64,000 bases of DNA from the NCBI GenBank assembly GCA_905178155.1, contig CAJINV010000005.1, positions 6,936,580-7,000,579 of the forward strand, in the 5' to 3' direction. Positions 6,320-61,776 of the stretch are shown in pieces. The position numbers and the translations under genes were made by a program. Each line of letters begins with the position of its first letter. Position 1 is the stretch's first letter. Below the pieces are notes generated by a model. That model saw only the letters and a program-made list of their open reading frames with translations, made no database searches and was not told the origin of the DNA. Source of the DNA: Amoebophrya sp. A120 (lineage: Eukaryota > Protista > Dinoflagellata).

Positions 6320-7694
6320 AGCCCCGTTGTGTATACTGTTGTTCAGGAAAATTTTTGTTTTGTGCTGGCCTTCTTTGTGTTGGCCCTGGTTTCCCGCGTT
6401 TTTTTCGCACGACATCCCCGGGTCAAATGTGCACGAGAGGGCGTTGGCCCTCAAAATAAAAGCGCCGGGCGCGCCGCGGCCTTTTGGGTAGCCTAGGTAG
6501 CGAAGAGAATGAACGGCCGACGGCCTCCCATCAATCAGAACCCCGGCCCGGGCCCGGAGTAGATGCAGCCGGCGCGCAAAATAGAGAGGCCACTCTCATG
6601 GGCGTGCGTGCTTGCGAAACAAAGACAACCGCCATAATTTTGCGCGCGGCCCCGGCGTGTCTCGCGGGCGCCCCTTGGGGCGGGGCCGGCTTGGGGTGCG
6701 TGGTCCGCGGAAAAGTTGTGCTTCCTCCCTAAGCCACAACTTTTCCCGGAGTCCGGTCGTGTTTGAGGGTAAAAAGAAGCTGCACAACGCCCAAGGGGGG
6801 CAGAAAAAGACAGCCACAGGTCGTGCGTAACCTAATGCAGCATGGTATGGCTGCGAGGAAAATTCGCACGCAGCGATACCATGCAGCATAACCTCACGCC
6901 CGATGCTACCGGGAGTGCGAATATTGCTGCTTGGGGATAGCATCGCGCAAAAGGTTACGCCCGACGGTGTGCAGCGGCTGTGGCAGCCGCTTTTGGCGAA
7001 CGGGGGGATTTGTAATGCGGAGAAGCGCCCGGGTTGCGGAGAACCCGAGGGTCCGGGCTTTCCCCTTTTCCCATTTTACCCACAACCCGAACCCCGAGCT
7101 CTGGGGAGCCCCGCACTCCGCATGTGTAATGCGGAGAGCCCGACCTTTCCGCCCATTGCATTTGTAATGCGGAGAGCCCGGCCTTTGAAAGGTCGGGCTC
7201 TCCGCATTACAAACGCAATGGCTATGGGCACCTTTCCGCACTTGTAATGCGGAAAGGCCACCTTTCCGCATTTGTAATGCGGAGAACCGGAGGCGCGGTC
7301 TTTCACTTTCTCCAACCGGAGGAAGCGGAGTTTGCGAATTTGTGGCGCGGCTTTTCTCCGGCGGGGAGAAAAGCTGCATCTGCATCCGGCTGGTTTTCCA
7401 ATTTTGTAATGCAGTTTTTCTCCACCCGACCGCTCGAGCGGAGAAAAACCGCGCGCAAAACAAGTAGCTTTGCGCGCGAAAAAACGGGCACAAGCCCTAT
7501 GAAAAGCGCAGCTTCTACCCCGTCCGGAGCGGGAAAAGTTGTAAGCGGGTGGAGCCCCATTTGCTTCCTCATTCTCGTAGGTCGCTAGTTTCATTCTCGT
7601 GGCACTATATGCTCTTTCTGGGGTCAAATTGTATTTTGTCCGTTCATAGCCCCGTTGTGTATCTATACTGTTGTTCAGGAAAATTTTTGTTTTG
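6320..7694. mobile_element. GC-rich ~1.3-kb segment bracketed by a ~43-bp direct repeat
   Basis: AGCCCCGTTGTGTAT(CTAT)ACTGTTGTTCAGGAAAATTTTTGTTTTG at 6320-6362 and 7648-7694; internal array of TGTAATGCGG and a palindrome at 7161-7213. Confidence 0.5.
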
Positions 7695-17800: not shown

Positions 17801-20800
17801 AAAAATAAAGCCGGAAGTGTATCTGGAGAATGGGGTTATTGTGAAGAAAAACCGGACCACGAGTCATGTTCCTGCAGATGCCCAGCAGCCACGACACTGT
17901 AGTGCTACGCCGAGTCCTCCTCCTCGCGGTTCTAGCGCTGCAACGCAGCAAGACAAGAACCAACAGAGGCAGAAAGGTTGTGCTAGCGCTCTATCTGCGC
18001 AAAAAGCGAAAAATAACTTCATCTCTGCCGAAGCGGAATTCCCCGAAGCGCTGACCGCCGCCGAGCACCATGCGCGGGTTGCGAACAGCAGTTGTGAGGT
18101 ACAACTGTTCGGAGAACAGGAGAAACCGGTACGGGTGTCCACCTCGATCGAGAATGATCTCCAGGTCCGGGCGATTTCCAACGAATATGAGAGTGCACAA
18201 CTACTTCCCCTCGTTCTCATTTCTCATGCAAAATACCTAATTTACGCATTGCCTCCTGTCACTATTATGCATGACAAGTTCTGGCAGCCCAGATAGCACT
18301 ATACTCCTGTCCAAATTAAAATTTGTCATGCAAAACCTGTATTCTTATTGACGGTTGTATTGCTGTTCATGCAATACAAATGAGGGGGAGGGGGAGTTGT
18401 GCACTGTCATAACGAAAACAGCCGGACCAGTACGGATCAAGATCAGAACTTGATGCAGGTAGATGATGGAGTGGGAGGTGGAGCTGCAGCTGCTGCGCCA
18501 TCTCCTCGTGTTCCTTACAAAGACCCACAGATGGCTGCCCTCGCAGCTCTGGCAACTACTACAGGAGTTGTGAAAACTACGGACGACAAGAAAAACTGCC
18601 TGACTCAGTCGTTGAAAAAGGCTGCAGAGGGTCGATATGCACTGCGAAAGTATCGTACTAGTAGAAATTGCATTACAAACTGCCTCAGCATTACAAATCA
18701 ATGCAATTTGTAATGCGGATTGCCTATGATAACTAGATTTGTATTGCATCTCTGCGAATACTACGAGTACGATACTTTTGCAGTGCATAGTCGAAGTGGT
18801 ATGGTAGTGATACCGTCCGTTCGCGGTATGAAAGGAGGTACTAGTAGTAGTTCCAGTCGCGGAGGAGGCGCAGCAGGAATATTATCTACAGGCGCTGGCA
18901 TGAGCAGCGCCGCGAGTTGCGCTAGTTCTTCGGCTATCAAATGTAAAAATGTCTGGGTCTGGAAGAATGCAACTTGTCATGCTAAACCTGAATCAGGCAA
19001 AAAACTGTGTTGCATGATTGCCAAAAGTTGTGCACTTTTGACCTAATCGAGAGGCAGTTTCTCATGCAGGATAGGCATCAGAAAGGTCCCGCAGAATCTG
19101 TCATGCTATGTCCTACATACCAGACCTCATGGGTCATGGAAAATCTGCATGACAAATCTGGCAATCTTCCAGACCCAGACATTTTTGCAATCCATATCGG
19201 CGTTGCCTGACAGTACCTCGTATGCATTGCAAAAGCATCGCACTAGTATGGACCAGCCATGCTCCGGCTGCCGCCGGAGCGCAAGGCTGTTGGGTCGGGG
19301 CAAGACTGTTTGCCGATAGGACCACAACCCCGCGGGCCTATGCACAACGAAACACATTGCGCCGCGCCAACCCGCAGGACCACTTGCGCGCTTCCCGCGC
19401 CTGTGGGCGCTCTGCGCAGGGAGCAGCTGCAAAGACCACCGGGGGCGAACAGAAACCGCCCGGCGGGGGAGGGTAGCGCGAGAGGGTGGCGCGAGAGGGT
19501 GCGCGAGAGGGTGGCGCGAGAGGGTGGCGCGGAAAGGCGCCGAACAAAACAGCTCCGCGAATGGCCTGCAGTGCCAAATATGGGTAGTGCCATGCGGATT
19601 CGCGCCCGCTTCTTTGTGTTTTACCCTCTCGCAGACCTCTCGCAGACCCTCTTTTTGGCCTCTTTTGGGGGTCCCCGCTAATAATCCGGCTATACTCGCG
19701 GGTAGAGGTCGACAGAGGTGGCCGAGAGGTGGCCAAGAGGGTCCGCGAGAGGTCGCCCCTTATTCGCGCCACCTCTCGCCACCTCTGTCGAACTCTCGCG
19801 CCCCCTCTTTTTGACCTCTCTGCACCCTCTGAGGCACTTAGGCGCCGCCTTAGGGTGGGTCCTTCGGCGGGCTATACTCGCGCACCCTCTCGCCGGCCCT
19901 CTCGAAAGGGGTCCCGCGCCACCTCTCCACCTCTGTCGACCTCTTTTTTACCTCTTTTGACCTCTTTTTGACCTCTCGGCCACCTCTTGTTTACCCTCTG
20001 TCTACCTCTTTTTTCGCATGAATATAATATATAGTAATTGCATTACAAATTTGCCCAGCATGAGAAATAGGATTTGTCATGCTGTTTTACCTTTAGATGG
20101 AGATTTGTAAATGCATAACTGCGATTACTACGAGTGCGATGCTTTTGCATTGCATACCTCGCTGCAGATCCAGGACCGGAAGTTTCGTTCCTCGACGAAC
20201 ACCATGCTGCCACTTTACAGCGACGAGCAAAGTAGATGCACAGGAGCTAGCAGCAGTGGCGCGGCGGGGGCCGTGGACACTGTAGACAGTTTGACGAGTT
20301 GCTGTGTGCAACATCAAGGAGCAAATAAAGGTCCTGGAAAAATAAATCATGGAGATGATCCTGCGACCTGCAAAGGAATAGGAGTAGGAAATAAGCAGGA
20401 CCACATGGAAATAGTGGAAGAAGTAGGTGGTCAACAAGACGGGAACAGTAAGAGCAACAGCGGAACAAGTGGTAACAGCTTGGAGCAGGAGGGATCGCTC
20501 ATGTCCGTTTACGACGTAGAACCTTTAGAGCAGGAACATGACAAGTCCACAAAAAAGCCCACGACGGAAAGCTGCGAAATCCAAAGTTTTCTCTATGACA
20601 ACCAAACCTCCTCGAGGCCATCTCACAACCGCCCCGCGACCAGCGAGTCGAGTCGCAACGCCACAGTGTCGGAGGGAACCGGGGTCTTGTCATCCGCCCA
20701 ATCGGGATTGAGTAGCCAAGCCAGGGAAAGCGCAAGCTCCATGTACGCGAATGAGGGTGATCTATTGATGGGCGACCACAACAACTTCCGGGGCCGTTTG

Positions 20801-30425: not shown

Positions 30426-33400
30426 ATGGTGGGCGGAGGCGTTCCCCCGGCGGTCCAACAGGTCTACAAGGACTTCGACGCTGCTTACAAGAAAAACGAC
30501 CTGGTCCAAACGGAGCAATTGCTGACAAAAGTAAAACTCGAACTCGCAAAACTGCAGGGGAATCAGCTCTTGTTGGAGAAGCAGGATGCTAAGGTATGGT
30601 GCAGCACCAGACAGTCTTGCTGAAATTTGTGTTGCGGAAGCGGCTGTAGAAAAGCACACTTGAAATTGTACATTTGCATGACAAAACAACAATTAAAAAA
30701 CACGTACAGGTCCTCGAGCTCTGCAGGGAGGTATACGAGAAGGGAGCATTTTTGAGCATCAAGCGCAACGACCCCCTGGCGTTTGAGAGAAACGTATACA
30801 TAGGGAAATTTTTTTCCTGATGATGCTCTTGCTCAATTGATGTGCATCACAAACGCCTGCTTCCAATAATAGATCTACCGCTAGTACAACACATCGATGA
30901 CAAACTTTCCATGGCCATCATGCTCTTCGATACATAAAATCGAAATACACAATCGTCTATATCAGGTGAAGCAGCTGAAGATTTACTACCGAGATTTCGA
31001 AAAATCTATCCCGTCAAAATCTTCCAACGAGTACAAAATACTCGGCCTCTATCTGCTCTCCTTGGTCTGCAGCGACAGAATATCCGAGTTCCACACAGAA
31101 CTCGAACTGATTCAGCAGCACGACTCCCAGTTTATCCAACGACCGGTCTTGTTGGAGCGGTACCTGTATCCTGTACAAAAGTATCGTACTCGTAGTAATT
31201 GCAGTTCTGCATTACAAATTTTTTTCTCAAGGTAAACTAGCATTACAAATTGAATTTGTAATGCTGGGCTAATTTGTAATGCAATTTATGCTAGTACGAT
31301 ACTTTTGCATTGCATAATCTGATGGAGGGAAACTTCGCGAAAATAAACCAGTTCGCGTCCGAATTCTCGTCGCAAGAGCACTACCCGGTTTTTCTGGAAC
31401 AGTTGCAGCAGATATGAGAGTGCACAACTCCCCCTCCCCCTCATTTGTAATGCAAAATCCGAAATTCTGTCGTTGCGTTCTGGCACGGTTTGCATGACAA
31501 ATCTCGGAAGTAGCCCAAACAGTACTTCTACGTTAGGCACATCGACTTGTCATGCAAAGGCTCCACTTGCTGGGTCGGTGTCTGTGTTGCTGTTCATGCC
31601 ATACAAATGAGGAGGCGGGGGGATGTGCACTGTCATAGCAGACCATGAGACGAAGAATATTGGAATCATTGGCAAAGGCGAGCAGCGAGGTATAAGGAAG
31701 GAGGTTTTTTTTCTTCGAGTTCGCAGCTTCTTGTGATGCAAAACTACTCATGACAAAGAATATTTGCCATGCCGGACACCTACTACACAACCAAAAACTT
31801 GAACAGATTTCCCTCGACCGCGTCGCGAAGATGCTCTACATGAGCAACGTCAGCGAAGTTTCTGGGTTTTTGAAGAAAATGCAGGAAGAGGTATTGAGTT
31901 TTGTGCATGACAGACCACCTCCGACGTGCCATTCTGTTTTGTTGAATTTGTGATGCATACGTCGCTTGGAAAAGTGAATTTGTCATGTATAGAACAACTA
32001 TAAACTTAAATATGGAACGTAGGTGTACTACCGCTACCGGGTTATTCGATGTACTACCGGGTTAGTCAAGGTGCTCCAAATTTGAAAAGTCAAGGCCAGC
32101 GCAAAAAAAAAGCCAAGGTCGGGAAATCCGTTGTCGAGGTTTTGTCGCGTTTTGGCCCCTGTTGTGCTTCGCATGCAAAGCACCGCCAGCGCGGGCCGAA
32201 GGGCTAGGAGCCGGCCCCTGTTGTGCTTCGCAAAGCACCGCCAGCGCGGGCCGAAGGGCTAGGAGCCGGCCCCTGTTGTGCTTCGCAAAGCACCGCCAGC
32301 GCGGGCCGAAGGGCTAGGAACCGCCGCCCGGGCGGCCAACCTTGAGGCAGAGCCAGGCCGAACGGGTTCGGTTTTGTCGCGTTTTGGCTCCTGTTGTGCT
32401 TCGCAGATCACCGCCAGCGCGGGCCGAAAGGCTGGGAACCGCCGCCCGGCCAATCTTGAGGCAGAGCCAGGCCGAACGGGTTCGGTTTTGTCGCCTTTTG
32501 GCTCGCGCTGTGCTTCGCAGATCACCGCCAGCGCGGGCCGAAGGGCGAGGAACCGCCGCCCGGCCAATCTTGAGGCCGAGCCAGGCCGAACGGGTTCGGT
32601 TTCGCGGGAGGTCTTGCCACCGTTTCGTTTTTTCCGTGCCAAAGAGGTTTTCGGGAGCGCCGTTTTTGATAGTACTACCGAGATAAGAGTCATGGACTCC
32701 ACTCGGATCGCGACAAATTTCGCGACCTCGGGAGCAGTTTGGGGGCAGTTTTTTTTGTTTTTTCATTGAGAATGCGTGTAGTATCCAGGTAGTGCAAAGA
32801 TCTGAAAACCGCCGTAGCATGGGTGTTCGGGTTTGCACTACCGCACGAAAAATAATGGGTAAAAGTCAGCCACTGCCGGAATCTGCGGGAATTAATATCC
32901 GGGCAGTGCATTGAGAAAGCAGATCGGTAGTGCAAAGCCTTAAAATCCACCGTAGCACTGGGAATATGCCTTTCACTACCGTACAAAACCGATAAGGGAA
33001 AAGCGACGCACTACCGTGGTGCCGGTTCGACGAATTTTGGTCGTCGGTTATCCCGGTAGTGCGTCGTCTTTTCGTACGGTAGTGCAACGCGTTTCCCCCA
33101 CGCTAAGGCGGTTTAGAAGTTTTTCGGCTACCGAGATAATAACTCAAAGACAAAATCAAGCGCGTCAGCTCGGATTCAACTCGGATTCGAGTCTGAACAC
33201 GTTGAAAGTCAACGCTTCCTATTGCGGTAGTGGAATGAAAAAAGTGATTACTTTTTGGCCTCAATCTCTTGGGAGGCGCTCCGCTCTCGCGCCTCTGGCC
33301 TCTGCTCTGTCTCCCCAGTCTCTTGGGGCGAGCGCTGAGGCGCCAACCAGGAAGCCGCCGGCTCGTCTTCAGACACGGTTGGCCACCCGATTTTCTCCGG

Positions 33401-34857
33401 TTGGGAGGGTCGAGGAGCGCCACAGCTCTTGACGCTGCGGGCGCGCAACTGCTCGGCGGGCTCCTCAGTCTCTTGAGTCGAGCGCCGCTCTTGGCAGCTC
33501 GCCGCAGTCTTGAGGCGAGCGCGGCGCCGCCCAGCCTCGTCAGTCTTCAGTCCGGGATAGAGTGGCGTGCTACAAAATAAAAAAACAGGCCCCTCGGGGG
33601 TCTGTTGCCGGCGGGGCGGCCGGCTCGCAGAGGTCCCCACCCGCTTCGCCGCGTCGTCGTCCGACATACAGCGGCAGGGTGGCAGTCAGCTCTGTATACT
33701 CATTAAAGCACCATCGTGCTGATAGTACTGACGTGAAAAACGGCCGGCAGTTTTCAAGGGGCGTTGCCATCAAACAAGCCCGAGCCAATTCATTCGATTC
33801 CCGATTGCTAAAACGACGCAAAGGAGCCGCCAAAAGAGACGCCCCGCCGAGGCGTCCAGCGCGACTATTTCCGTCGATTTGGACCGCCCAAAAAGGGGCG
33901 CCGGAAAATGCCAAGACGAAAAAAGCGGAAGCCGCATGGTACGGGCCCCATTTCGGTCCACTTTTGGAGGTTGCAAAGCCCGCTCGCCAAAAGCTAAACG
34001 CTGACCCGCATGCTATTGGCCAGATTTTGGGGGCCCATGGGGCCGGGCTTGGTGGAGGCCCAGGCGGGGGCATAGCATGCGGGAAAGTGTTTCGATTCAG
34101 GAGGCGGCAGGGGCGCGGCTTTTCAACAAAAAAAATCAAAGGACGCAAATCCCGCCAGAAGCAGTAGGCCAGGCCGCATGTTATGGCTGGGCCCGAAACG
34201 GTGGCAAGACCCGTAACGGGTCCAAATTGCGAGATGGGGCCAGGCGCGTAGTCCCCCGCGGATTAGGGTCCGGCGGCAAGCAGTTTTTCCGGATGAAAGG
34301 GAAGCCTTTTTTCTTTGTTTTTGAAGATGAATTTTGAAGATGATTTCCTATAAAACAACTCAAACCACAACAGAGAATGAATGCGAATGAATGCTGTAGC
34401 TAGGTAGATTGCAATATTGTGCCTGTGCTAGCTAACGACGGTGAAGCTAGGTAGATATAGACTTCGGATCTCGGCTAAGTAGCTACGTAGTTAGCGAGTC
34501 CAGTGTCCGCTTAGCGAGTCCAATGCCCGCCCGTTTCATCGGATTTCCCGACCTTGGCTTTTTTTTTACGCTGACCTTGACTTTTCAAAATTGGGGCACC
34601 TTGACTAACCCGGTAGCACATGCAATATTCCGGTAGCGGTAGTACACCTACGTTCCATATTAAACTCATGGTCAAAACTACAAACTCTTCAGGACGCTGG
34701 CGACATGATGACGGACGACACGCCAAACCAGCCACAGTGGGAAGTCGCGGGGAGTAAATTGAGGTTGACAGCCAGCAGTCGAACGGAAAGGATACCGGTC
34801 TTTGACACGTTGTCAAATGTGATTGACTACGCGACGGAGATAGAAAGGATCGTGTAG
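30426..34857 (+). CDS. RPN12: 26S proteasome regulatory subunit RPN12/PSMD8 (~279 aa)
   Basis: Exons 30426-30593, 30710-30793, 30966-31166, 31322-31412, 31643-31689, 31807-31890, 34693-34857. Motifs QLKIYY, LGLYLL..SDRISEFHTELE, LERYLMEGNF and C-terminal VIDYATEIERIV*. Confidence 0.9.
31167..31316. mobile_element. Introner family A
   Basis: TSD ACCTG/ATCTG; removal restores ERYLMEG. Confidence 0.85.
31413..31637. mobile_element. Introner family D
   Basis: TSD GCAGA/GCAGA. Confidence 0.85.
32011..34659. mobile_element. 2,649-bp TIR DNA transposon (apparently non-autonomous) in the last intron of RPN12
   Basis: ~120-bp imperfect TIRs (TATGGAACGTAGGTGTACTACCGCTACCGG... / ...CCGGTAGCGGTAGTACACCTACGTTCCATA); perfect TSD TTAAA at 32006-32010 and 34660-34664. 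Confidence 0.9.
32150..32600. repeat. GC-rich tandem repeat (114-bp period, preceded by ~59-bp partial copies) inside the TIR element
   Basis: CTTGAGGC.GAGCCAGGCCGAACGGGTTCGGTTT starts at 32341, 32455 and 32569; CACCGCCAGCGCGGGCCGAA occurs five times. Confidence 0.85.
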
Positions 34858-35723: not shown

Positions 35724-36422
35724 ATGCCCGGAGGGCATCTTCCGCCCCGGGCAGCAGGCGACCCACCGACAACGCAAAGTAGTAATGCCAATTATGACCA
35801 TGCAGCTGATTATGGTGCTGCAACCAACAACTGGATCCCACCGCATGCCGGTACTAACCAAGCGCAACAAGAAGCAGATCATGACACGACGCCGACCAGA
35901 TCCGCTGCAACATCTCTCTCGCAACAACTTTTCGCCCTCAACCGACGACTCCGGAACTTTTTTCACACCATACTCCGCCTGTACGGGATTTTGTGCCTCC
36001 ACGTAGCGTTTCTGGTCTCCATGCGGACGAGCTACGAATTTTTGGTGAAGATGGAATACGGAGCGGAATTCTTTTATGGAAGTGTCAGAATCGAAATCGA
36101 CAAAGTCGAAAAATTTGTGATGCACAAAATCGATGCCAGTTGGAGCCTCAGTTTCTAAGTGGCGCGTGACAACTTTCGGGACCACCAAAATCCAGTCTGT
36201 CATGCTGTTTGGACAAAGCAGGCTGCTCCTGTCATGCTACTCTGGCAACATATTACATTTTACATACCCCTAAACAGGCTTCCAATCGGTCTCATTTGCC
36301 TGCTCCCCAATACAGGCGTCGCGTGCCCTACATTTTATGCATCACAAATTGTTTGATTTTGTCGATTTCGATCCTGACACCCCCATATCTTTTTTGTCGA
36401 TTTTTTGTACCTGGCAATGTAG
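35724..36422 (+). CDS. Small hypothetical protein (~126 aa) with a hydrophobic C-terminal part, or an upstream ORF of the BEACH gene
   Basis: ATG at 35724. Removing introner 36075-36387 gives ..AEFFFVDFLYLAM* (TAG 36420-36422). No recognisable domain. Confidence 0.4.
36075..36387. mobile_element. Introner family C
   Basis: TSD TCTTT/TCTTT. Confidence 0.85.
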
Positions 36423-36540: not shown

Positions 36541-39500
36541 ATGCTGGTGGGAATCTCGCGGAGTTTAGCCAAGGAAAAAACTGTGTTAGTGTAAACTTTC
36601 TTTGGCTGACAGCATCACAAATCTGCTCTACATGACAGAGACAATTTCTCATGCGTCGTGGCTTGTAAAGGAGCACACACTTGAGCAAAGAACTTCATGG
36701 CTGTCTGGCATGACAGGCGAAACTCTGTTGCCTGTTGTGCATTACAGAGTTACACTTACACAGTTTTTTTCTTGCATAGAGTTTCAACCCGCTTGTGCTC
36801 GCCGAGGGCGAGCAGTACCTGGCGGATTATTCCGTTTCGCTATGCAATGCAAAAGCACCGCCATCGTACGTAGATGTATGAATTACATTACAAATTGGGT
36901 CAGCATGACAAATGCAATTTGTAATGCTACTTCCGGTTACGCAAGACAGAGATTTGTCATGCGTGTCTGCGACCACTGAACGAGTGCGATAGTACTTTTG
37001 CACAGGATATTCGTGGCGGGTCAACAACTCGACGACGAGCACGAATGGAAGGTTGAGAATAGCGAGTATGAGCATCATTTTAGACCCGGATGACTGCGCG
37101 TTGGATTTAATCCGGATTCAGTTCAAACACTTTTTGCACGACGGGAACGCGGTTGCAGCGAAGAAGGACGAGAAGATAAGCAATAACCTCGGGGGAGTTG
37201 CACCTCCGCCGGGTAGCAGTGCGTCCGCCATGTTCAACAGCAGCAATCCGAACAACCTCCAAAGCCGCTTGCTGAACGTGAAAGCCAACCAGTGGTCACT
37301 CATCCGCACGCATCAGTGGCAGCAGGAAACCAGGATAACAACTCCGTTTAAGACGGAGCAATATCCTCTGCAAAAGTATCGTACTCGTATTGCAATCATG
37401 CATTACAAATCGTTTCCTCTATGTAAATTCGCATTACAAATTCCACTTCTCATGCTGAGGAAATTTGTAATGCATTTATACGAGTACTGCGATACTTTTG
37501 CAGTTCATAAGCAAAGCGCTCCTACAAGTACACACTACGCCATCCATTTACGGTACGGTGACTTGAATCAGCTGAGAGAGGTTTTTGAGGAGCTGAAGGA
37601 GCTTAACGGGAATGGGAGTGGTGGTGACAGCAGGAACAATGCTGCGGCAACGTCCGGCTTCACCCTGAGCAAACAAGCGCAGTCGAATCGCGACCGGGCT
37701 TTGGAGTCGTTGGTTTTGAAATTACAATCGACATCTTCAAGTTCCTCTTCCTCCTCGTCGGCGCAAGGAAATCAAAATGCAAACCAGGCCGGCGGACGTC
37801 AACAACCTCCCCAGCAGCAACTGACCGTCGCGTTCGACCTGTCCCGCCTGCAGTCGCACCGGGAAAGGCAAAATTTGCAGCTGCGGGAGTTTTTACCGCA
37901 AGACGATCCGAGAGTGAAGCAAGGAATTTTTTGCTTCCTGATAAAGCCCATGGTGAAACACCGAGGATTGTTGCAGTTAACGGACCAAGCGCTGTATTTC
38001 CAACCAGTGCCGAACTTTTTGGACGACTCGCCTGTGATTCGTATTTCCCTTGCGGAAATCCTACACTTTTTCCCGCGGGTTTGCAAGTTGAAAGACTGCG
38101 GGCTTGAGATTGTCTGCGAGAAAAAGGCGAGAAACTTGTTTTTGATGTTCGAATTTCAGAAGTTGCGAAACGCAGTATTGCAGTTGTTGGAGAAGCTGCT
38201 GGTAGGGCGGAGCAGTGGGGCAAGTGGTGCAGAAAACGGAACGCAAAGTAGTAGACCAAGCAGCAATAGTACATCCCGGATCATGATAAACCCCTCTTCC
38301 AATCTGAAGCAAATGCTGCAGCACATGCTTTCGCTCTGGCAGAGCGGGAAGTTGTCGAATTACCACTACTTGGATTTCTTGAACTGTGCTGCCGGGAGGT
38401 CGGTCAACGACCTGTCGCAATTATGCAGGAAAACAACTGTGTAAGTGCAAATCTGTGATGCAGAAAGTGCAAAACTGTCACACTTGTCATGCTGGATGTG
38501 CGTCATAGGCTACTTCCATACGTGTTTCCACGTACTAGCTGCGCATGACAGGTTTTTCCTGTAATGCAAAGCGAATTTGTGATGCTGCTCTTCCTACAAA
38601 GACAAAGTTTCACTTACACAGTTTTTCTCCTGGATAGCAATATCCGATCTTCCCGTGGGTCCTAACCGATTACCAGTCGCTGCAGATAGATTTGACGGAT
38701 CGGAAAAATTTCCGGGATCTGTCGAAGCCGTTAGGTGCGATGAATCCGAGCCGGTTGAGGCAATTTCGAGAACGGATGCGCGAAATGCCAGCGGGACAAA
38801 AGTTTTTGTACGGTATAAGAAGGATCTTGTTTCATCTTCTCATGCTGTTTCACCTCCGATGTGGCAGTTTGTTTGGCATGCATAGACTGCATAATCATCA
38901 CCGCCTTCAGCAAAAAAACAGGACAAACAAACACAAATTGTCACAGGCACCCACTACTCCACGCCCGCTTACGTTCTCTACTTCCTCGTCAGGGAACTGC
39001 CAGAGTGCATGCTCAGGCTTCACTCCGGCTCCTTTGACTCCTGGAACCGGTTATTTCACTCCATGGAAACCACTTACCGGGCGACGCAAGACGGCTCCGC
39101 GGTTTTGATGGAATTACTACCGGAGTTTTTTGTTCTGCCAACGAGCAATAAAGACGCCCAAACAACTTTTCTGGAAAACTACCTCAATATTTCCACCCAA
39201 GAGGGGGACTTGCGCAACGTTTCCCTGCCACCCTGGAGCAACGGCAAACCGGAGTTGTTTCTTTCAATACAGCGGGCGGCGTTAGAGTCCGCGATTGTCA
39301 CGGAAATGCTGCCGAAGTGGATTGATCTGATTTTCGGCTGGAAAAGCCGGGGAGAAAACGCCGACAACGCGGACAATCTTTTTCACCCAGTTTGCTACTT
39401 GGGCCCGAAATCGAGTGGATTAGCTGGATCATCATCCACTGGTAGTGGAAGTACAACTAGCGGCAGCCGAAACAACAAACAGGCGCAAAATCCGGAAATG

Positions 39501-42500
39501 AATAACCAGCAGCAAAACCTCACAAACAGAGCGACGGGCATGGTCTCTGGTGCGATTGGCGGCTCCTTTTCCCAAATGCTCGGCGGCATGAGCGGTATGA
39601 GGAACGCGTTTACGCATTGCAAACATGTCAGGGTCTGCATGGATTCGAATTTGTGATGCGACTTCTACATCATGACAAAATCTGTCATGCAGGGTCAGCA
39701 AAAGGACCCATTTCCTGTTACAGAAAGGGGGCATTTTATTCTTATGCGGATTAGGCATTGGGATTATACCTGCTCGGACTCTCTGATGCTAGAGCTTGCA
39801 TGCCAGATGATCTGGGCTAGGCAAACGCCGCATCACAAATGTCTGCACTCTTCCAGACCCAGACACATTTGCACTTGATAGCGTTGTTGGGAAACACTTT
39901 CTTTGACATGGACGACGATGTTGAACACGAGAAAAACAAGCAAAAACCGAATAGGAACAGCAGCACGAATGAGCAGGATGCCTTCGGCGGGACGATAGAC
40001 CAGCAGGACAAAGCGGTTTTGGAGATCCAAATTGAGGAATTCGGCCGCGTATGCATTGCAAAAGCATCGTAAACTTCTAGTATGAATGGCATTACAAATT
40101 TGCAGCTCAGTAACAAAAATGTTGCAATTTGTCATGCTAATTCAGGTAGAAAATTGTATTGGATTTGTAATGCATGCCTGGTGCAATCGAGTATTTGCGA
40201 TGCTGTTGCATTGCATACCGGGTCCCGTTTCAGCTCTTCTCCGAGCCGCACCCACCAAAGATGGTCACGCAACAGAATTCGGACGGGAAGAATCTGTGGA
40301 CTGTGGAAAGGTTGAAGCAGGACTGGATACAGAATGAGCCGTGGTACGTAGCGCTAGCCGCGATTGGGAAAGAGGGAGAATTCCTTCATCGCGGGGGTCC
40401 AGCAACCGCATCAGCAGGACTACAGCTTCCGTCTGGAGGTGCGCCACGGAATGATGCTGGTAACACCAGAATTATTTCAAACGATGTTGACCCCTTCGCC
40501 CCGAACGGGGGGAATAGAAACAGGCAGGACGAGGATTTTTTTGGTACTACAACTGGGACGACAAATAAAACAGTGAACAATCAAGACTACTCTTCTCGCA
40601 GCACTGCCTCCACCGCAGGTAGGAAAGGATCACTTGAAAAGAACCAGAAAGGCGGAAGTTCTGCAACCGAGCCGACCATTGTGAATTTCTTGCCGAAAAA
40701 GCGGACAGGATCCACAGGTGAAAACAACCTTGATCCCCCCCACCAGCCACAGTTGCAAAATCCGTACGCGAAAACCGCCACGCCGAAAAGCAGCAATACG
40801 ACTGCAGCCAGTATATCAAATGTAAAAGTGTCTGTGTCTGGGAACTTGTGATGCTGGGTGGCGTCTCATGATGAGGCTACAAATGCTGGCTCAGCATGAC
40901 AAGTTTCTGAGCTCCTAGGTGTTGCCTATTCTGCATGACAAACTGCGCTCATGCAACACAGAAAAACGGAGCTTTTGGGTAACGTGCATGACAGATTTAA
41001 GAGTCATGCCAGACAAGCATGACAAACATGAATTCTTCCAGACCCAGACATTTTTACAGTTGATACAGTATGGTGAACGTCAGTTTCAGCGCACCGGAGC
41101 CGGATTTCTTGAAATCGAACATCAAGCCGAATGACGATTTCTTTGACAACTCATCTTCTTCGACGAAGATAGATTTCAACGTTGGTGGCGCTACTGGGCC
41201 TAGCGCAGCTTCTACCACAATAAATCGCAATAAAGCAGCCAACAATTTTTACAACAATAATCCGCAAAATAATAAGCTTCCGGAGTTCAGCTCCTGGCGG
41301 TTACAGGAGGTTATCGCAAATGACCCAGACGGGAAGTTAAATACGCTGAAGGGGGAGATCAACCAAATGCAACACACCAGAGACAAGATTTTTGCGGTTT
41401 GCGAGGACGGGTGTTTACGGACATTGTGCAGAAGAACGGGCGTGCAGAGGGCGTTTCACTTGTTATGACAGTGCACAAGAACAACTACTCCCCCTCCCCC
41501 TCGTTTGTCATGCAAAATGCCTAATCCATATCCACTCTTTCCCTCTTCAGTCTGTTTGCATGACAAGTTTATTCCGAAGGAGCCCAAACTACACTAAATG
41601 TCCGTTCTTGGATTTATCATGCGGAAGCCACATGTCTGCCGATGCTGGTATAGCGGTTCATGCAACACAAATGAGGGGGACGAGGAGAAGTTGTGGACTG
41701 TCATGCTTGTCGAACGTGCCACTGAAATGCCTCGCGGTGGTGGATCTGGGAACTGTGTTTGCAGAATTTTCGCACCTCCAAGCAGCCTCGGCTAGCAGTG
41801 TCGCAAATGGAGCTCCTGCATCTAATGGTGGCGCGGCATCAACCACGATGTTGACAAGTAGACCTGAAGTCGATCTGTCCCCGCTTTCCGCCCAGAACCA
41901 ACAGTCTACGATCATCGTGGTCGGGGGTTGTGACAACGCCATTTCCTTATTTGATCTACGAACGGGGGTCGTCGTTGATCGGCTCTTTACCGCACACGCT
42001 GACACGGTGACCTGTATGGCGCACTGCGTGGAGCAGAATCTAGAAGCGAAAAAAATCTGCTTGAAAATCATCACCGGATCCCTGGACCAGACCGTCGCGG
42101 TCACGGAGGTGTTGCTCAGTAACACAAGTAACGGGATGTTGAATCCCGGAGCGGTAAATCCAAATACAGTAAACGTGAAGGGAATTGGGCTGCAACTTTT
42201 GTCCACTTTTGACGAACCGGATGAGCCTGTCTCCGCCGTCCACACAGTGATAGCAGGCACGAGCAACTTCATTGCGTGCGGGACGGAAACGGGAAAAGTT
42301 TGTTTGTTCACGACGGATTCCACCGGGGTGTTCGGCGCTGCGGCGGGAATTTCGAAGAATGAGATGTACTTTGAGCGGCAGTTGGAGTACAATCAGGAAA
42401 TCATTCATGTGGAAATCACAGTGAAAGGAAAATTGCAACAGATGAACACCAACAACTCGCTAATCCTAACTGCCTTGGATAAAGACGGGAATTTGAGGCA

Positions 42501-43035
42501 GTACGATATTTCCGAAGAAAATCAAACAGAATTACTACGACGGCACTTAATATCGACTTCGCCGGATGCGGGGAGCGGCGGGTATGGCATAGACCACCAG
42601 CAGCCGCCGGGGATGATGATGTTAGGAGGTGGGAATAACTCGAAGTGTGTCTCCATGTTGGCGATAACAACCACAACAAGAATGACATCGTCAACTAACA
42701 GCGGACCACCTGGACGTGGTCCTGGTCCCTCCAGCATGACCACAAGCACAAACAGCCCGATGCTGCTGGTAATCAGCTACGGTGATGGGTCTGTGCAGCT
42801 CTATGATGTCGCGGAAAACGCGGTGAGGAAAGTGTGGAGCTGCGGAGACGGGAAGGCGGCAAGACTGAGTAGTGCGATCAGGGCGAACTGTGATTCTTAT
42901 GCGGGGGTAATGATGGTGGATGGAAGTTGTAGCACAGGTTTGTCTTGTGCAGGAGGGATGGGTGCAGCAGCAACCTCGTTGGAAGATTTTGTCTTCTGCA
43001 CGGAGGACGGGTCGCTGTTTCTGGTGGGGTACTGA
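36541..43035 (+). CDS. FAN/NSMAF-like BEACH-domain protein (GRAM/PH-BEACH-WD40, ~1,550 aa)
   Basis: N-terminal [26 protein letters not shown]; BEACH motifs [65 protein letters not shown]; WD40-like C-terminus. Eight introners and one GT-AG intron (38813-38946). Confidence 0.9.
36566..36778. mobile_element. Introner family G2 (TIR core AAAAAACTGTGT)
   Basis: TAG..ATA; TSD GAGTT/GAGTT. Confidence 0.8.
36841..37009. mobile_element. Introner family A (diverged)
   Basis: TSD TTCGC/TTCGT. Confidence 0.8.
37362..37509. mobile_element. Introner family A (in-frame, stop-free)
   Basis: TSD AGCAA/AGCAA; ORF 37053..38444 reads through it. Confidence 0.85.
38422..38636. mobile_element. Introner family G2
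   Basis: TSD GCAAT/GCAAT; removal restores DLSQYPIFPW. Confidence 0.9.
39611..39880. mobile_element. Introner family E
   Basis: TAC..ATA; TSD GCGTT/GCGTT. Confidence 0.8.
40050..40217. mobile_element. Introner family A (diverged)
   Basis: TSD CCGCG/CCGGG; removal restores FGRVPFQLF. Confidence 0.85.
40814..41065. mobile_element. Introner family E
   Basis: TSD CAGTA/CAGTA. Confidence 0.85.
41464..41705. mobile_element. Introner family D
   Basis: TAT..ATG; TSD CTTGT/CTTGT. Confidence 0.8.
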
Positions 43036-59618: not shown

Positions 59619-60426
59619 CGAGCACGACGACGCGTAGAAGTCGTGCTCGCGCCCCCTGGTCGACGTTTCCGGCGTACAAGAAGAGGAGCACCAGAACTAT
59701 GCGCCGCCGGCTATCGTGCGTAAAAACGTCGTCTCCACGCCAGAATCTAGACGGTGACTTTGCAACACAAATCCAGAGGCTTTAGGAATCGCGGATCATG
59801 ACTAGTTTGGCGCTGGTGCAGTGTAATCTTGCCGAGCTAGCCCAGACGCATTTTTACAATAAATTCGCCCAGTTGATGTTCTGATTAGTGCATTGCAGCT
59901 TCCCAAGGGCCATTACGAAACGCCTCTCATATAAGTTGAGAAACATCCTGCGCATACAAATTGACAAAAAAAAATTGCATAACAGCGCTGGAGGGGTGGG
60001 GACGTCTTTGTATAGGATACCGGTTACCTTTGCGGAGGAGTAAGTTCCTGCTTGCTGCAAGTACCGCCGTGCGCGTCGCGATGGTACCAACATGCACGAC
60101 GTCGACCCTAGAAGTGCTATCGCCTGGCCCACGTCTCGTCGGTGCCGTGAACGTGGAGAAAATCAACGCACAGCAGCAATCACAGCAGCAGGGCAATGCT
60201 GGAAACGGCAGCGGCACCACGACGAACACAGCGCAAACTGCGCAGCCGAGCTCGAAGACGAACGAGGGCAATTGCAATGGCGGCGGCTCCTGTATGAAAA
60301 AGCAAACTTCGCATTACTTCAGCTTTCTAATACGTACATCTATCACGAAGATAGCACCGACGCTGCTCTTCTTGCGCTATCCTCTTTGCATCACGTCGAG
60401 GACCGCGAGTGTGAAGGGGTGGCGCG

Positions 60427-61776
60427 TTGTATAGGGCTAGGGGGCCAGCAGGCATTGGAAGTGAAGGAAGCTGTTTTTTCTTATGCATAGTATGCGGCCA
60501 GAACACCAGTGGTGAGGAGCTGCAAAGGATGAAAGACGGGACACCGAAGGCCGTCATCGGTCAGTTTTCCGACCCACACAAAGGGCCTGATGTGGTCCCG
60601 GACCCGGCAGAACAACCGCCGCGAGGACCTTCTTCCGCATCACGGCTGCAAGCTTCTCAGCGCGTACCGTCCAGTGAGGGAGCAGGCACAGGGACAAGCA
60701 CTGCTGCTGCTGCAGGCGGGCACCAGGACCCGGACCAGCCCAGGAATCCAACTGATCTCGCGGCCGCCGCTTCCTTGTCTACCAAAAGAACGACCAGCAA
60801 GACGGGGGGATCGCCACCTGGCGTTGATGAAGCTTCCACGAGGACCAGCGGCAACGAGATTACACCTGGAGATCCACTAAAGGCTGCTGCTGCAGGCGAG
60901 CACCAGAGTGCTGGAGAACCACCACCACGATGTGAGACGCTGACGGATGGCCAGGCGGAGGGAGTCCTGTGTGCGTTGCCGAACGGGTCGACGTACCAGG
61001 GGCAGTGGAAGGACGGCAAGAGGCACGGCGAAGGTGTGTACACGTGGGAGAATGGGGCGAGGTACAATGGGCAGTGGGTGAATGGCAAGAGGGGCGGCAG
61101 CGGTGACACGTGGGCGGACGGGAGGACTGTGTACGTTGGGCAGTACAAGGACGACAAGCCACACGGCGAGGGCACGCATACGTTGCCGGACGGGTCGACG
61201 TACAAGGGGCAGTGGAAGGGCGGAAAGATGCACGGCGAAGGTGTGTACACGTGGCCGGACGGGGCGACGTACGATGGGCAGTGGGAGTATGGCAAGAGGG
61301 ACGGCAACGGTGTGTACAAGCTTCCGGACGTGTCGACGTACGAAGGGCAGTACAAGGACGACAAGAAGCATGGCAAAGGTGTGCTCACGTGGTCGGACGG
61401 GCGGAAGTACGACGGGGAGTGGGAGTATGGCAAGAAGCATGGCAGCGGTTTGTACACGTGGGCGGATGGGACGACGTACGACGGGCAGTGGCAGTATGAC
61501 AACATGGACGGCAGCGGTGTGTGCACGTGGGCGGACAGGAGCAAGTACGACGGGCGGTGGCAGGATGGCTTGAGGCACGGCGATGGCAAGTACACACGCC
61601 CTGGTGGGACGACTTCCTGGGAGGGATCATGGTGGGAAGATAAAGCAGGCTTGCCTCATTATCTCAATCCGCTGCCCGACCTCGGGACTTGCACGACGGA
61701 CGGCCATCAGTGGCTGGTCCCCGTGCGGTTTGAAGATTGCAAACCGTGGAAGTGGGGGGATTTTTCTCCGTTTTAG
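60427..61776 (+). CDS. MORN-repeat protein (3' exon; gene probably starts near 59293)
   Basis: Nine tandem 23-aa YxGxWxxGKxHGxG repeats plus a partial one. Upstream exons (ATG 59293, introner 59386-59618, ORF 59961) are plausible but not resolved. Confidence 0.85.
   Translation: MYRARGPAGIGSEGSCFFLCIVCGQNTSGEELQRMKDGTPKAVIGQFSDPHKGPDVVPDPAEQPPRGPSSASRLQASQRVPSSEGAGTGTSTAAAAGGHQDPDQPRNPTDLAAAASLSTKRTTSKTGGSPPGVDEASTRTSGNEITPGDPLKAAAAGEHQSAGEPPPRCETLTDGQAEGVLCALPNGSTYQGQWKDGKRHGEGVYTWENGARYNGQWVNGKRGGSGDTWADGRTVYVGQYKDDKPHGEGTHTLPDGSTYKGQWKGGKMHGEGVYTWPDGATYDGQWEYGKRDGNGVYKLPDVSTYEGQYKDDKKHGKGVLTWSDGRKYDGEWEYGKKHGSGLYTWADGTTYDGQWQYDNMDGSGVCTWADRSKYDGRWQDGLRHGDGKYTRPGGTTSWEGSWWEDKAGLPHYLNPLPDLGTCTTDGHQWLVPVRFEDCKPWKWGDFSPF

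Follow-up and report, generated by a model that had tools for sequence, protein, structure and literature searches.

A long transposon with TAT ends and a 5-bp target site duplication in an intron of an RPN12-like gene of Amoebophrya sp. A120

The host gene and its last intron

The 64,000-nucleotide stretch analyzed here (the window), from contig CAJINV010000005.1 of the dinoflagellate Amoebophrya sp. A120, contains an RPN12/PSMD8-like gene whose last intron harbors a DNA transposon with terminal inverted repeats (TIRs). The surrounding sequence is rich in introners, which share with this element a TAT start and a 5-bp target site duplication (TSD). Six joints in the contigs of run X4, all of equal depth and each in one contig, define seven exons and a 279-residue frame without a stop. 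The name RPN12, rather than CSN8 or eIF3k, rests on the match of exon 3 to the Pfam family CSN8_PSD8_EIF3K (E 1.6e-5) and on a C-terminal motif that we take to be that of RPN12.

A contig of run X4 skips the full intron at 31891-34692 (2802 bp, GT..AG), and the preliminary description was thus correct in placing the element in the last RPN12 intron. Run X4 is probably RNA; this status is a guess, and no run covering the region is recorded as RNA. The DNA-like run X1 has none of the six joints among the matches listed (15 of 149), and the RNA runs X10 and X11 have 0 reads on the region. Removal of the element and one TSD leaves an intron of 148 bp, comparable with the gene's other canonical introns of 116, 172, and 117 bp. 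The element therefore sits in a pre-existing intron, 120 bases past the donor and 28 ahead of the acceptor, and is removed along with it. In the predicted fold of the intron, 115 of the 123 bases of the left TIR pair with the right TIR. This stem would loop out 2.4 kb and possibly aid splicing of the host intron; it may also permit excision of the element as an intron inside an intron.

Two short TAT..ATA introners in the same gene (Table 1) and a third at 36075-36387 are spliced with exactly one TSD and mostly at non-canonical ends. Summed contig depth over these three is 14,000-96,000, versus 30 in the flanks. The canonical GT-AG introns at 30594-30965, 31690-31806, and 31891-32005 hold the introner-typical motifs CATGACA/TGTCATG and CATCACAA/TTGTGATG, which are either relics or splicing signals.

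Table 1. Features of the element and its host gene (window positions)
Feature	Positions	Strand	Remarks
Host gene, RPN12/PSMD8-like	30426..34857	+	7 exons, 279 aa
Short TAT..ATA introner in RPN12 gene	31167..31316		spliced with exactly one 5-bp TSD, 155 bases skipped
Short TAT..ATA introner in RPN12 gene	31413..31637		spliced with exactly one 5-bp TSD, 230 bases skipped
Host intron, last of gene	31891..34692	+	GT-AG, 2802 bp; 148 bp minus element and one TSD
Left TSD, TTAAA	32006..32010	+	flanks TATGG end
Whole TIR element	32011..34659		2649 bp, without detectable transposase open reading frame
Left TIR	32011..32133	+	123 bp, begins TATGG, 3 CTACCG motifs
55-bp tandem array	32154..32323	+	3.0 copies, runs into 114-bp array
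114-bp tandem array	32268..32602	+	2.9 copies; core in common with 55-bp unit
Perfect 18-bp inverted repeat	32610..32627	+	partner 34194-34211
Internal motif block	32675..33230		9 CTACCG/CGGTAG motifs
GC-rich segment	33726..34195		many diverged relatives within one DNA run
Right TIR	34537..34659	-	123 bp, 113/123 identical to left TIR, 3 motifs
Right TSD, TTAAA	34660..34664	+	28 bases before 3' splice site

Anatomy of the element

The element is a real non-autonomous TIR DNA transposon. The preliminary description gave its coordinates exactly (32011-34659, ends TATGG..CCATA), along with the perfect TTAAA duplication on either side (32006-32010 and 34660-34664). Its TIRs, earlier put at about 120 bp with TAT..ATA ends, measure 123 bp; they agree at 113 of 123 positions and perfectly over the outermost 30 bp. 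The 114-bp tandem array stands as described at 32268-32602, and a 55-bp array at 32154-32323 had been missed. GC content is 56% in the element versus 38% in the host intron around it.

The abundance of CTACCG/CGGTAG repeats was also borne out. Fifteen copies lie in the element, 6 in the TIRs and 9 between them, as against 14 in the remaining 61 kb of the window; 1000 simulations of the element gave a mean of 1.0 and a maximum of 6. The internal block at 32675-33230, within which lies a degenerate 73-bp inverted pair (32779-32851 and 33069-33141), likely represents putative transposase-binding repeats.

Reading of the ends

Agreement at all five TSD positions has a chance probability of ∼0.0013 at the base composition of the host intron. 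Several other parses also fit this single copy: ATAT.. ends with a 3-bp TAA duplication, TGG.. ends with a 2-bp TA, and GG.. ends with a 4-bp ATAT. It follows that the ends could be misread, as ATATGG..CCATAT with TAA in the manner of PIF/Harbinger, as GG..CC with ATAT, or as TGG..CCA with TA, and that the element would then be unrelated to the introners. We regard such a misreading as very improbable. Every one of these parses is compatible with the copy at hand, the T...A form that creates the ambiguity is found in only 12 of 332 introner TSDs, and TAA is the target of Harbinger elements. However, the GG/ATAT and TGG/TA parses call for five extra chance matches (∼0.002), whereas TAT with 5 bp calls for two (∼0.10), and the 3-bp parse requires the TATG at positions 2-5 to have arisen by chance in a genome dominated by TAT ends and 5-bp duplications.

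TAT ends and 5-bp duplications among the introners

The published signature of the introner repeats of strain A120 is TAT followed by seven variable bases and a stretch of three or more A, from a census covering introns of at most 1 kb (Farhat et al. 2021, PMC7789003). The short introners of the window fit this signature. In a census of the window that was unbiased for termini, TAT with a 5-bp TSD formed the largest class (33 of 131; the runner-up had 9), and a stricter census of the window and related loci, likewise unbiased, gave 75 against 2 for each of the next classes. Among 56 hand-picked window introners, the 5-bp TSD is perfect in 42 and has one mismatch in 14. When these 56 introners and the element are stripped out, with one 5-bp TSD each, long frames are restored, one of them of 3240 residues.

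A metagenome collection includes a related organism that carries the same families of introners, and the same chemistry is seen there. The introner pattern recovered at least 147 stretches, which gave 139 loci, in part overlapping, of a single assembly, and 305 of 314 short TAY..RTA elements in this related assembly have a 5-bp TSD. The pattern gave 0 matches in viral contigs. Base usage within the TSDs of 332 elements is near-flat. Across 664 introner ends, TAT is followed by C or G, and positions 11-14 are A in 83-93%.

Relation of the element to the introners

The element begins with TAT and has a 5-bp TSD, as A120-type introners do. It lacks their stretch of three or more A that follows TAT and seven nucleotides, reading AGGT at positions 11-14, and six internal motif strings frequent in introners have 0 occurrences in it. 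Scored against an introner profile, its ends rank within the highest 9-13% when set among ordinary TAT sites and within the lowest 7-31% when set among introner ends. For non-autonomous elements, the Repbase rule asks for equal TSD length and for positions 1-11 to align with no more than one mismatch. By this rule 1 of 664 introner ends passes against the element, but random TATG sites pass in 7% of cases and genomic TAT sites in 11%. Judged by these comparisons, only the first four bases (TATG) are convincingly common to the element and the introners, and the likeness beyond them appears no better than chance. Nor did the element create an intron of its own in an exon, lying instead within a GT-AG intron.

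The end chemistry that the preliminary description took to be shared thus holds for the TAT ends and the 5-bp TSD (42 of 56 in the window, 305 of 314 in the related assembly); past TATG, the TIR is introner-like at chance level. The missing likeness past TATG, together with the missing A-run and internal motifs, therefore argues for a sister TIR family that shares their insertion chemistry. The element and the introners likely fall in one superfamily, the element in a different TIR family with a few close copies, and a family of its own would likely have its own autonomous partner. As a sister, its TIR may fail to lead to the introners' own transposase. Of the preliminary inference, the non-autonomous TIR element sharing TAT ends and the 5-bp TSD stands; its value as bait for the introner enzyme is moderate, and taken by itself the element is one more non-autonomous transposon of ordinary kind within an intron.

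Copies and relatives of the interior

In run X1 the flanks have a contig depth of 29-33, against 58-75 (2-2.5×) for those interior contigs that are identical to the window, which suggests two or three close copies, depth being no strict copy number. A 1195-bp X1 contig at flank depth holds rearranged pieces of the element, ∼85% alike, including inner TIR. At some interior positions, for example 32628, 33021, and 33219, all contigs differ from the window, and the assembled interior may therefore carry errors. Flank contigs enter each TIR by only 28 bases, with a bridging threshold of 31 bases. No loose contig ends at the element termini are found among the matches listed (24 of 130), and the 10 joints listed across four runs include no empty-site joint, a weak negative given that contigs drop rare variants.

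The GC-rich segment at 33726-34195 has a wider set of relatives: at 80% likeness, four of five bins reach a summed depth of 640-1030, and its joints suggest tandem forms elsewhere. At the related locus L032, a non-coding stretch that lies upstream of a gene is 68% alike to it. This homologous stretch (L032:14449-15155) is bracketed by an 11-bp inverted pair, one arm of which follows TAT, and is found just upstream of the gene, with no TSD evident. The interior alone matched the 139 related loci; the TIR gave no blastn match to them, and exact TIR patterns matched nothing in either the metagenome or the viral collections.

Search for a transposase and the proposed mechanism

The preliminary description saw no convincing transposase open reading frame (ORF), and a Pfam search agrees: none of the 25 ORFs of at least 60 residues in the element matches above cut-off, although a remote or decayed remnant could escape such a search. 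Comparison of the element with Rfam gave two weak matches, far under the cut-offs. The search was widened to ORFs of at least 200 residues in the window and the 139 related loci; 238 of the 262 non-redundant ones were used, 24 of low complexity being dropped. Because nested introners break ORFs, they could hide a transposase.

The reading that we favor, with moderate confidence, is that the element is non-autonomous and moved in trans by an integrase-like DDE transposase of the IS3EU/GingerRoot type acting with a 5-bp stagger; this enzyme class is drawn from the termini. The proposed pathway has four steps: 1) a cut-and-paste enzyme of this type would be supplied in trans, 2) it would bind the TIRs and the CTACCG repeats, 3) staggered insertion with no strong target preference would generate the 5-bp TSD, and 4) landing 28 bases ahead of the acceptor, in a 148-bp intron already present, would lead to passive removal by host splicing.

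Several known properties of these superfamilies agree with this assignment. IS3EU termini are always TA..TA, in fungi TAYGG..CCRTA, with a TSD mostly of 6 bp, and GingerRoot has TA..TA ends, TIRs of 100-150 bp, no target motif, and intact elements of 3.9-12.9 kb (PMC10045372, PMC12730594, PMC6839031). The TA..TA ends of the element take the TAYGG..CCRTA form, its 123-bp TIR falls within the GingerRoot range, and no target motif is apparent. A precedent for mobilization in trans is Styx, reported as a degenerate IS3EU-like element (PMC10853768).

A number of observations weigh against the IS3EU/GingerRoot reading. The TSD is 5 bp rather than the usual 6; none of the 56 window introners has a 6-bp TSD, and in the related assembly a single element out of 314 does. 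The element is also smaller than intact GingerRoot. TATGG starts 78 of 664 introner ends as well, which makes it a weak match to IS3EU. The 3-bp TAA parse predicts an empty site identical to that of the TAT/5-bp parse, and the two can be weighed by context only, a strong one here given how TAT with a 5-bp TSD dominates the censuses. The 238 ORFs matched host genes only and no transposase; with none in the element either, the enzyme class therefore depends on the termini. An 815-bp introner at L024, of the size of the published TIR family 38, shows no integrase trace in Pfam. At L004, an element with an 8-bp TSD demonstrates that TATGG..CCATA ends can accompany another TSD length. Finally, the genome paper reports no transposase in A120 and argues against general transposase-driven movement (PMC7789003). 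Since its TSD is not 6 bp and no transposase was found, we do not file the element as a member of IS3EU or GingerRoot; it resembles one by its ends.

The L024 introner (L024:6184-6998) has a TATGG start and a 5-bp TSD, and 190 bp of it are shared at 98% with L011:5485-5674, inside an introner of another TIR family. As a carrier of an integrase remnant it found no support, with no Pfam match above cut-off. The L004 element (L004:2204-2726) measures 523 bp and is apparently nested in an introner; its ends are TATGG..CCATA, its TIRs span ∼62 bp, and its TSD of 8 bp is hAT-like in length.

The mobilizer might instead belong to an undescribed superfamily outside the IS3/IS481/integrase-like group, leaving the anatomy and the TAT/5-bp system unchanged. 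TAT ends and a strict 5-bp TSD are combined in none of the groups compared (PMC10045372, PMC12730594, PMC6839031, PMC2836005, as far as these sources extend), 56 of 58 A120 families are "Unknown" in a 2025 survey (PMC12130899), and a 2021 domain search reported no transposase in A120 (PMC7789003). This explanation seems unlikely, however, given that known superfamilies contain TSD lengths 1-3 bp apart (hAT5/6/7; Ginger2 with 4 or 5 bp; GingerRoot with 6-8 bp) and that the termini and TIR length agree with IS3EU/GingerRoot.

The repeats raise the question of a hAT-type element of the 5-bp kind, with the CTACCG arrays as subterminal binding repeats. Short repeats in both orientations are a hAT trait, and those of the element agree with it; a TATGG-ended element with an 8-bp TSD is present in the related assembly. 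The hAT end pattern has a purine at position 3 and G at position 5, yet the 664 introner ends have T at position 3 in 99% and G at position 5 in 17%. A literature search found no hAT5 terminal sequences. The TSD of hAT5 is indeed 5 bp (cited in PMC12730594), but hAT5 is placed in a lineage of animal hATs, and we consider a hAT5-like origin improbable.

A broader proposal is that TAT/5-bp elements form an undescribed integrase-like lineage behind tens of thousands of non-canonical introns in these parasites, with the long-TIR family as the closest relic of the autonomous element and its TIR leading to the enzyme. This proposal is doubtful.

Other features of the window and related loci

The introner at 19221-20156 (936 bp) carries a GC-rich insert of ∼790 bp holding short tandem repeats, and an insert 78% alike is found at L006:505-1608, where the surrounding introner belongs to another TIR family, which suggests cargo shared between TIR families. 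A solo long terminal repeat was considered for the insert of the 936-bp introner and dropped, its L006 relative having other boundaries. At L020:2013-2331, a Mutator-like stretch of 319 bp has GG..CC ends and a 9-bp AT-rich TSD; a 5- or 7-bp parse also fits.

Elsewhere in the window, a 1.3-kb GC-rich intergenic stretch at 6320-7694 lies between direct repeats of ∼45 bp (91% alike), with palindromic repeats at ∼7009-7291, and is an insertion without explanation. BEACH and WD40 coding stretches at 36780-43032 are interrupted by introners, and a MORN-repeat gene at 60415-61773 has a 69-bp array.

Comparison with known systems

On the mobilizer of the Amoebophrya introners, the authors of the genome paper found no transposase in A120 (PMC7789003), and almost every family is without a classification in the 2025 survey (PMC12130899). 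Like the A120 introners, the element has a TAT start, TIRs, a 5-bp TSD, and no transposase. It differs in its length of 2649 bp with 123-bp TIRs, in having no A-run at positions 11-14 and no introner internal motifs, and in lying inside an existing canonical intron, itself interrupting no exon. The TAT/5-bp chemistry thus extends to long elements in existing introns, which an intron census limited to 1 kb would miss.

A recent survey tabulates 58 A120 families, one as Mutator, one as Ginger (family 38), and the other 56 as "Unknown" at family level (Gozashti et al. 2025, PMC12130899). Family 38 is listed as "Ginger; 5-bp TSD, TA/TA Termini" (supplementary file 8), and its ORFs are described as homologous to Copia/Gypsy, without Ginger termini. 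Long TIR families with internal satellites are also tabulated, such as family 86 (1619 bp, 84-bp TIR), and a fungal introner family is noted as GingerRoot-like. By tabulated values, none of the 58 A120 rows pairs the length of the element with its TIR length, although the family may be catalogued in Repbase or Dfam. The survey text and its 14 supplements carry no mention of IS3EU. A literature search joining IS3EU and dinoflagellates found nothing, and no literature tying Amoebophrya to IS3EU was among the matches listed. The TAT/5-bp chemistry appears to be partly in print already, and the link to IS3EU/GingerRoot appears unpublished in the searches made. Background on method or context was drawn from PMC4455052, PMC7805219, PMC9860276, and PMC11282704.

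The preliminary description held that TAT ends with a 5-bp TSD match nothing known. This view gives way before the TA..TA ends of IS3EU/GingerRoot, the TNT..AYA ends of IS481EU (PMC10045372), the 5-bp TSDs of hAT5 and of TDD-4 and TDD-5, and A120 family 38. Each of these parallels is partial. IS481EU/Banshee elements differ in their TSDs (∼4, 15, or 25 bp), in TIRs that are mostly shorter than 50 bp, and in having been reported from parabasalids only (PMC10045372); 5 bp is the rule here, and a single copy of IS481EU-7_TV with a 5-bp TSD has been reported (PMC10045372). Ginger1 and Ginger2 termini are TGTNR, in contrast to the TAT of the element, whereas the 5-bp TSDs made by TDD-4 and TDD-5, TIRs of 50-180 bp, and protist hosts are points in common with Ginger2/TDD (PMC2836005). 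The element shares the 5-bp TSD of hAT5 and differs from it in the animal-hAT placement and in the hAT end pattern.

Across related integrase-type groups, TSDs span 4-6 bp, including the 5 bp of TDD-4/5 (PMC10045372, PMC2836005). Set against these systems, the element narrows the search for the introner enzyme to a DDE protein like those of IS3EU, GingerRoot, or IS481EU, encoded between long TIRs with TAT ends.

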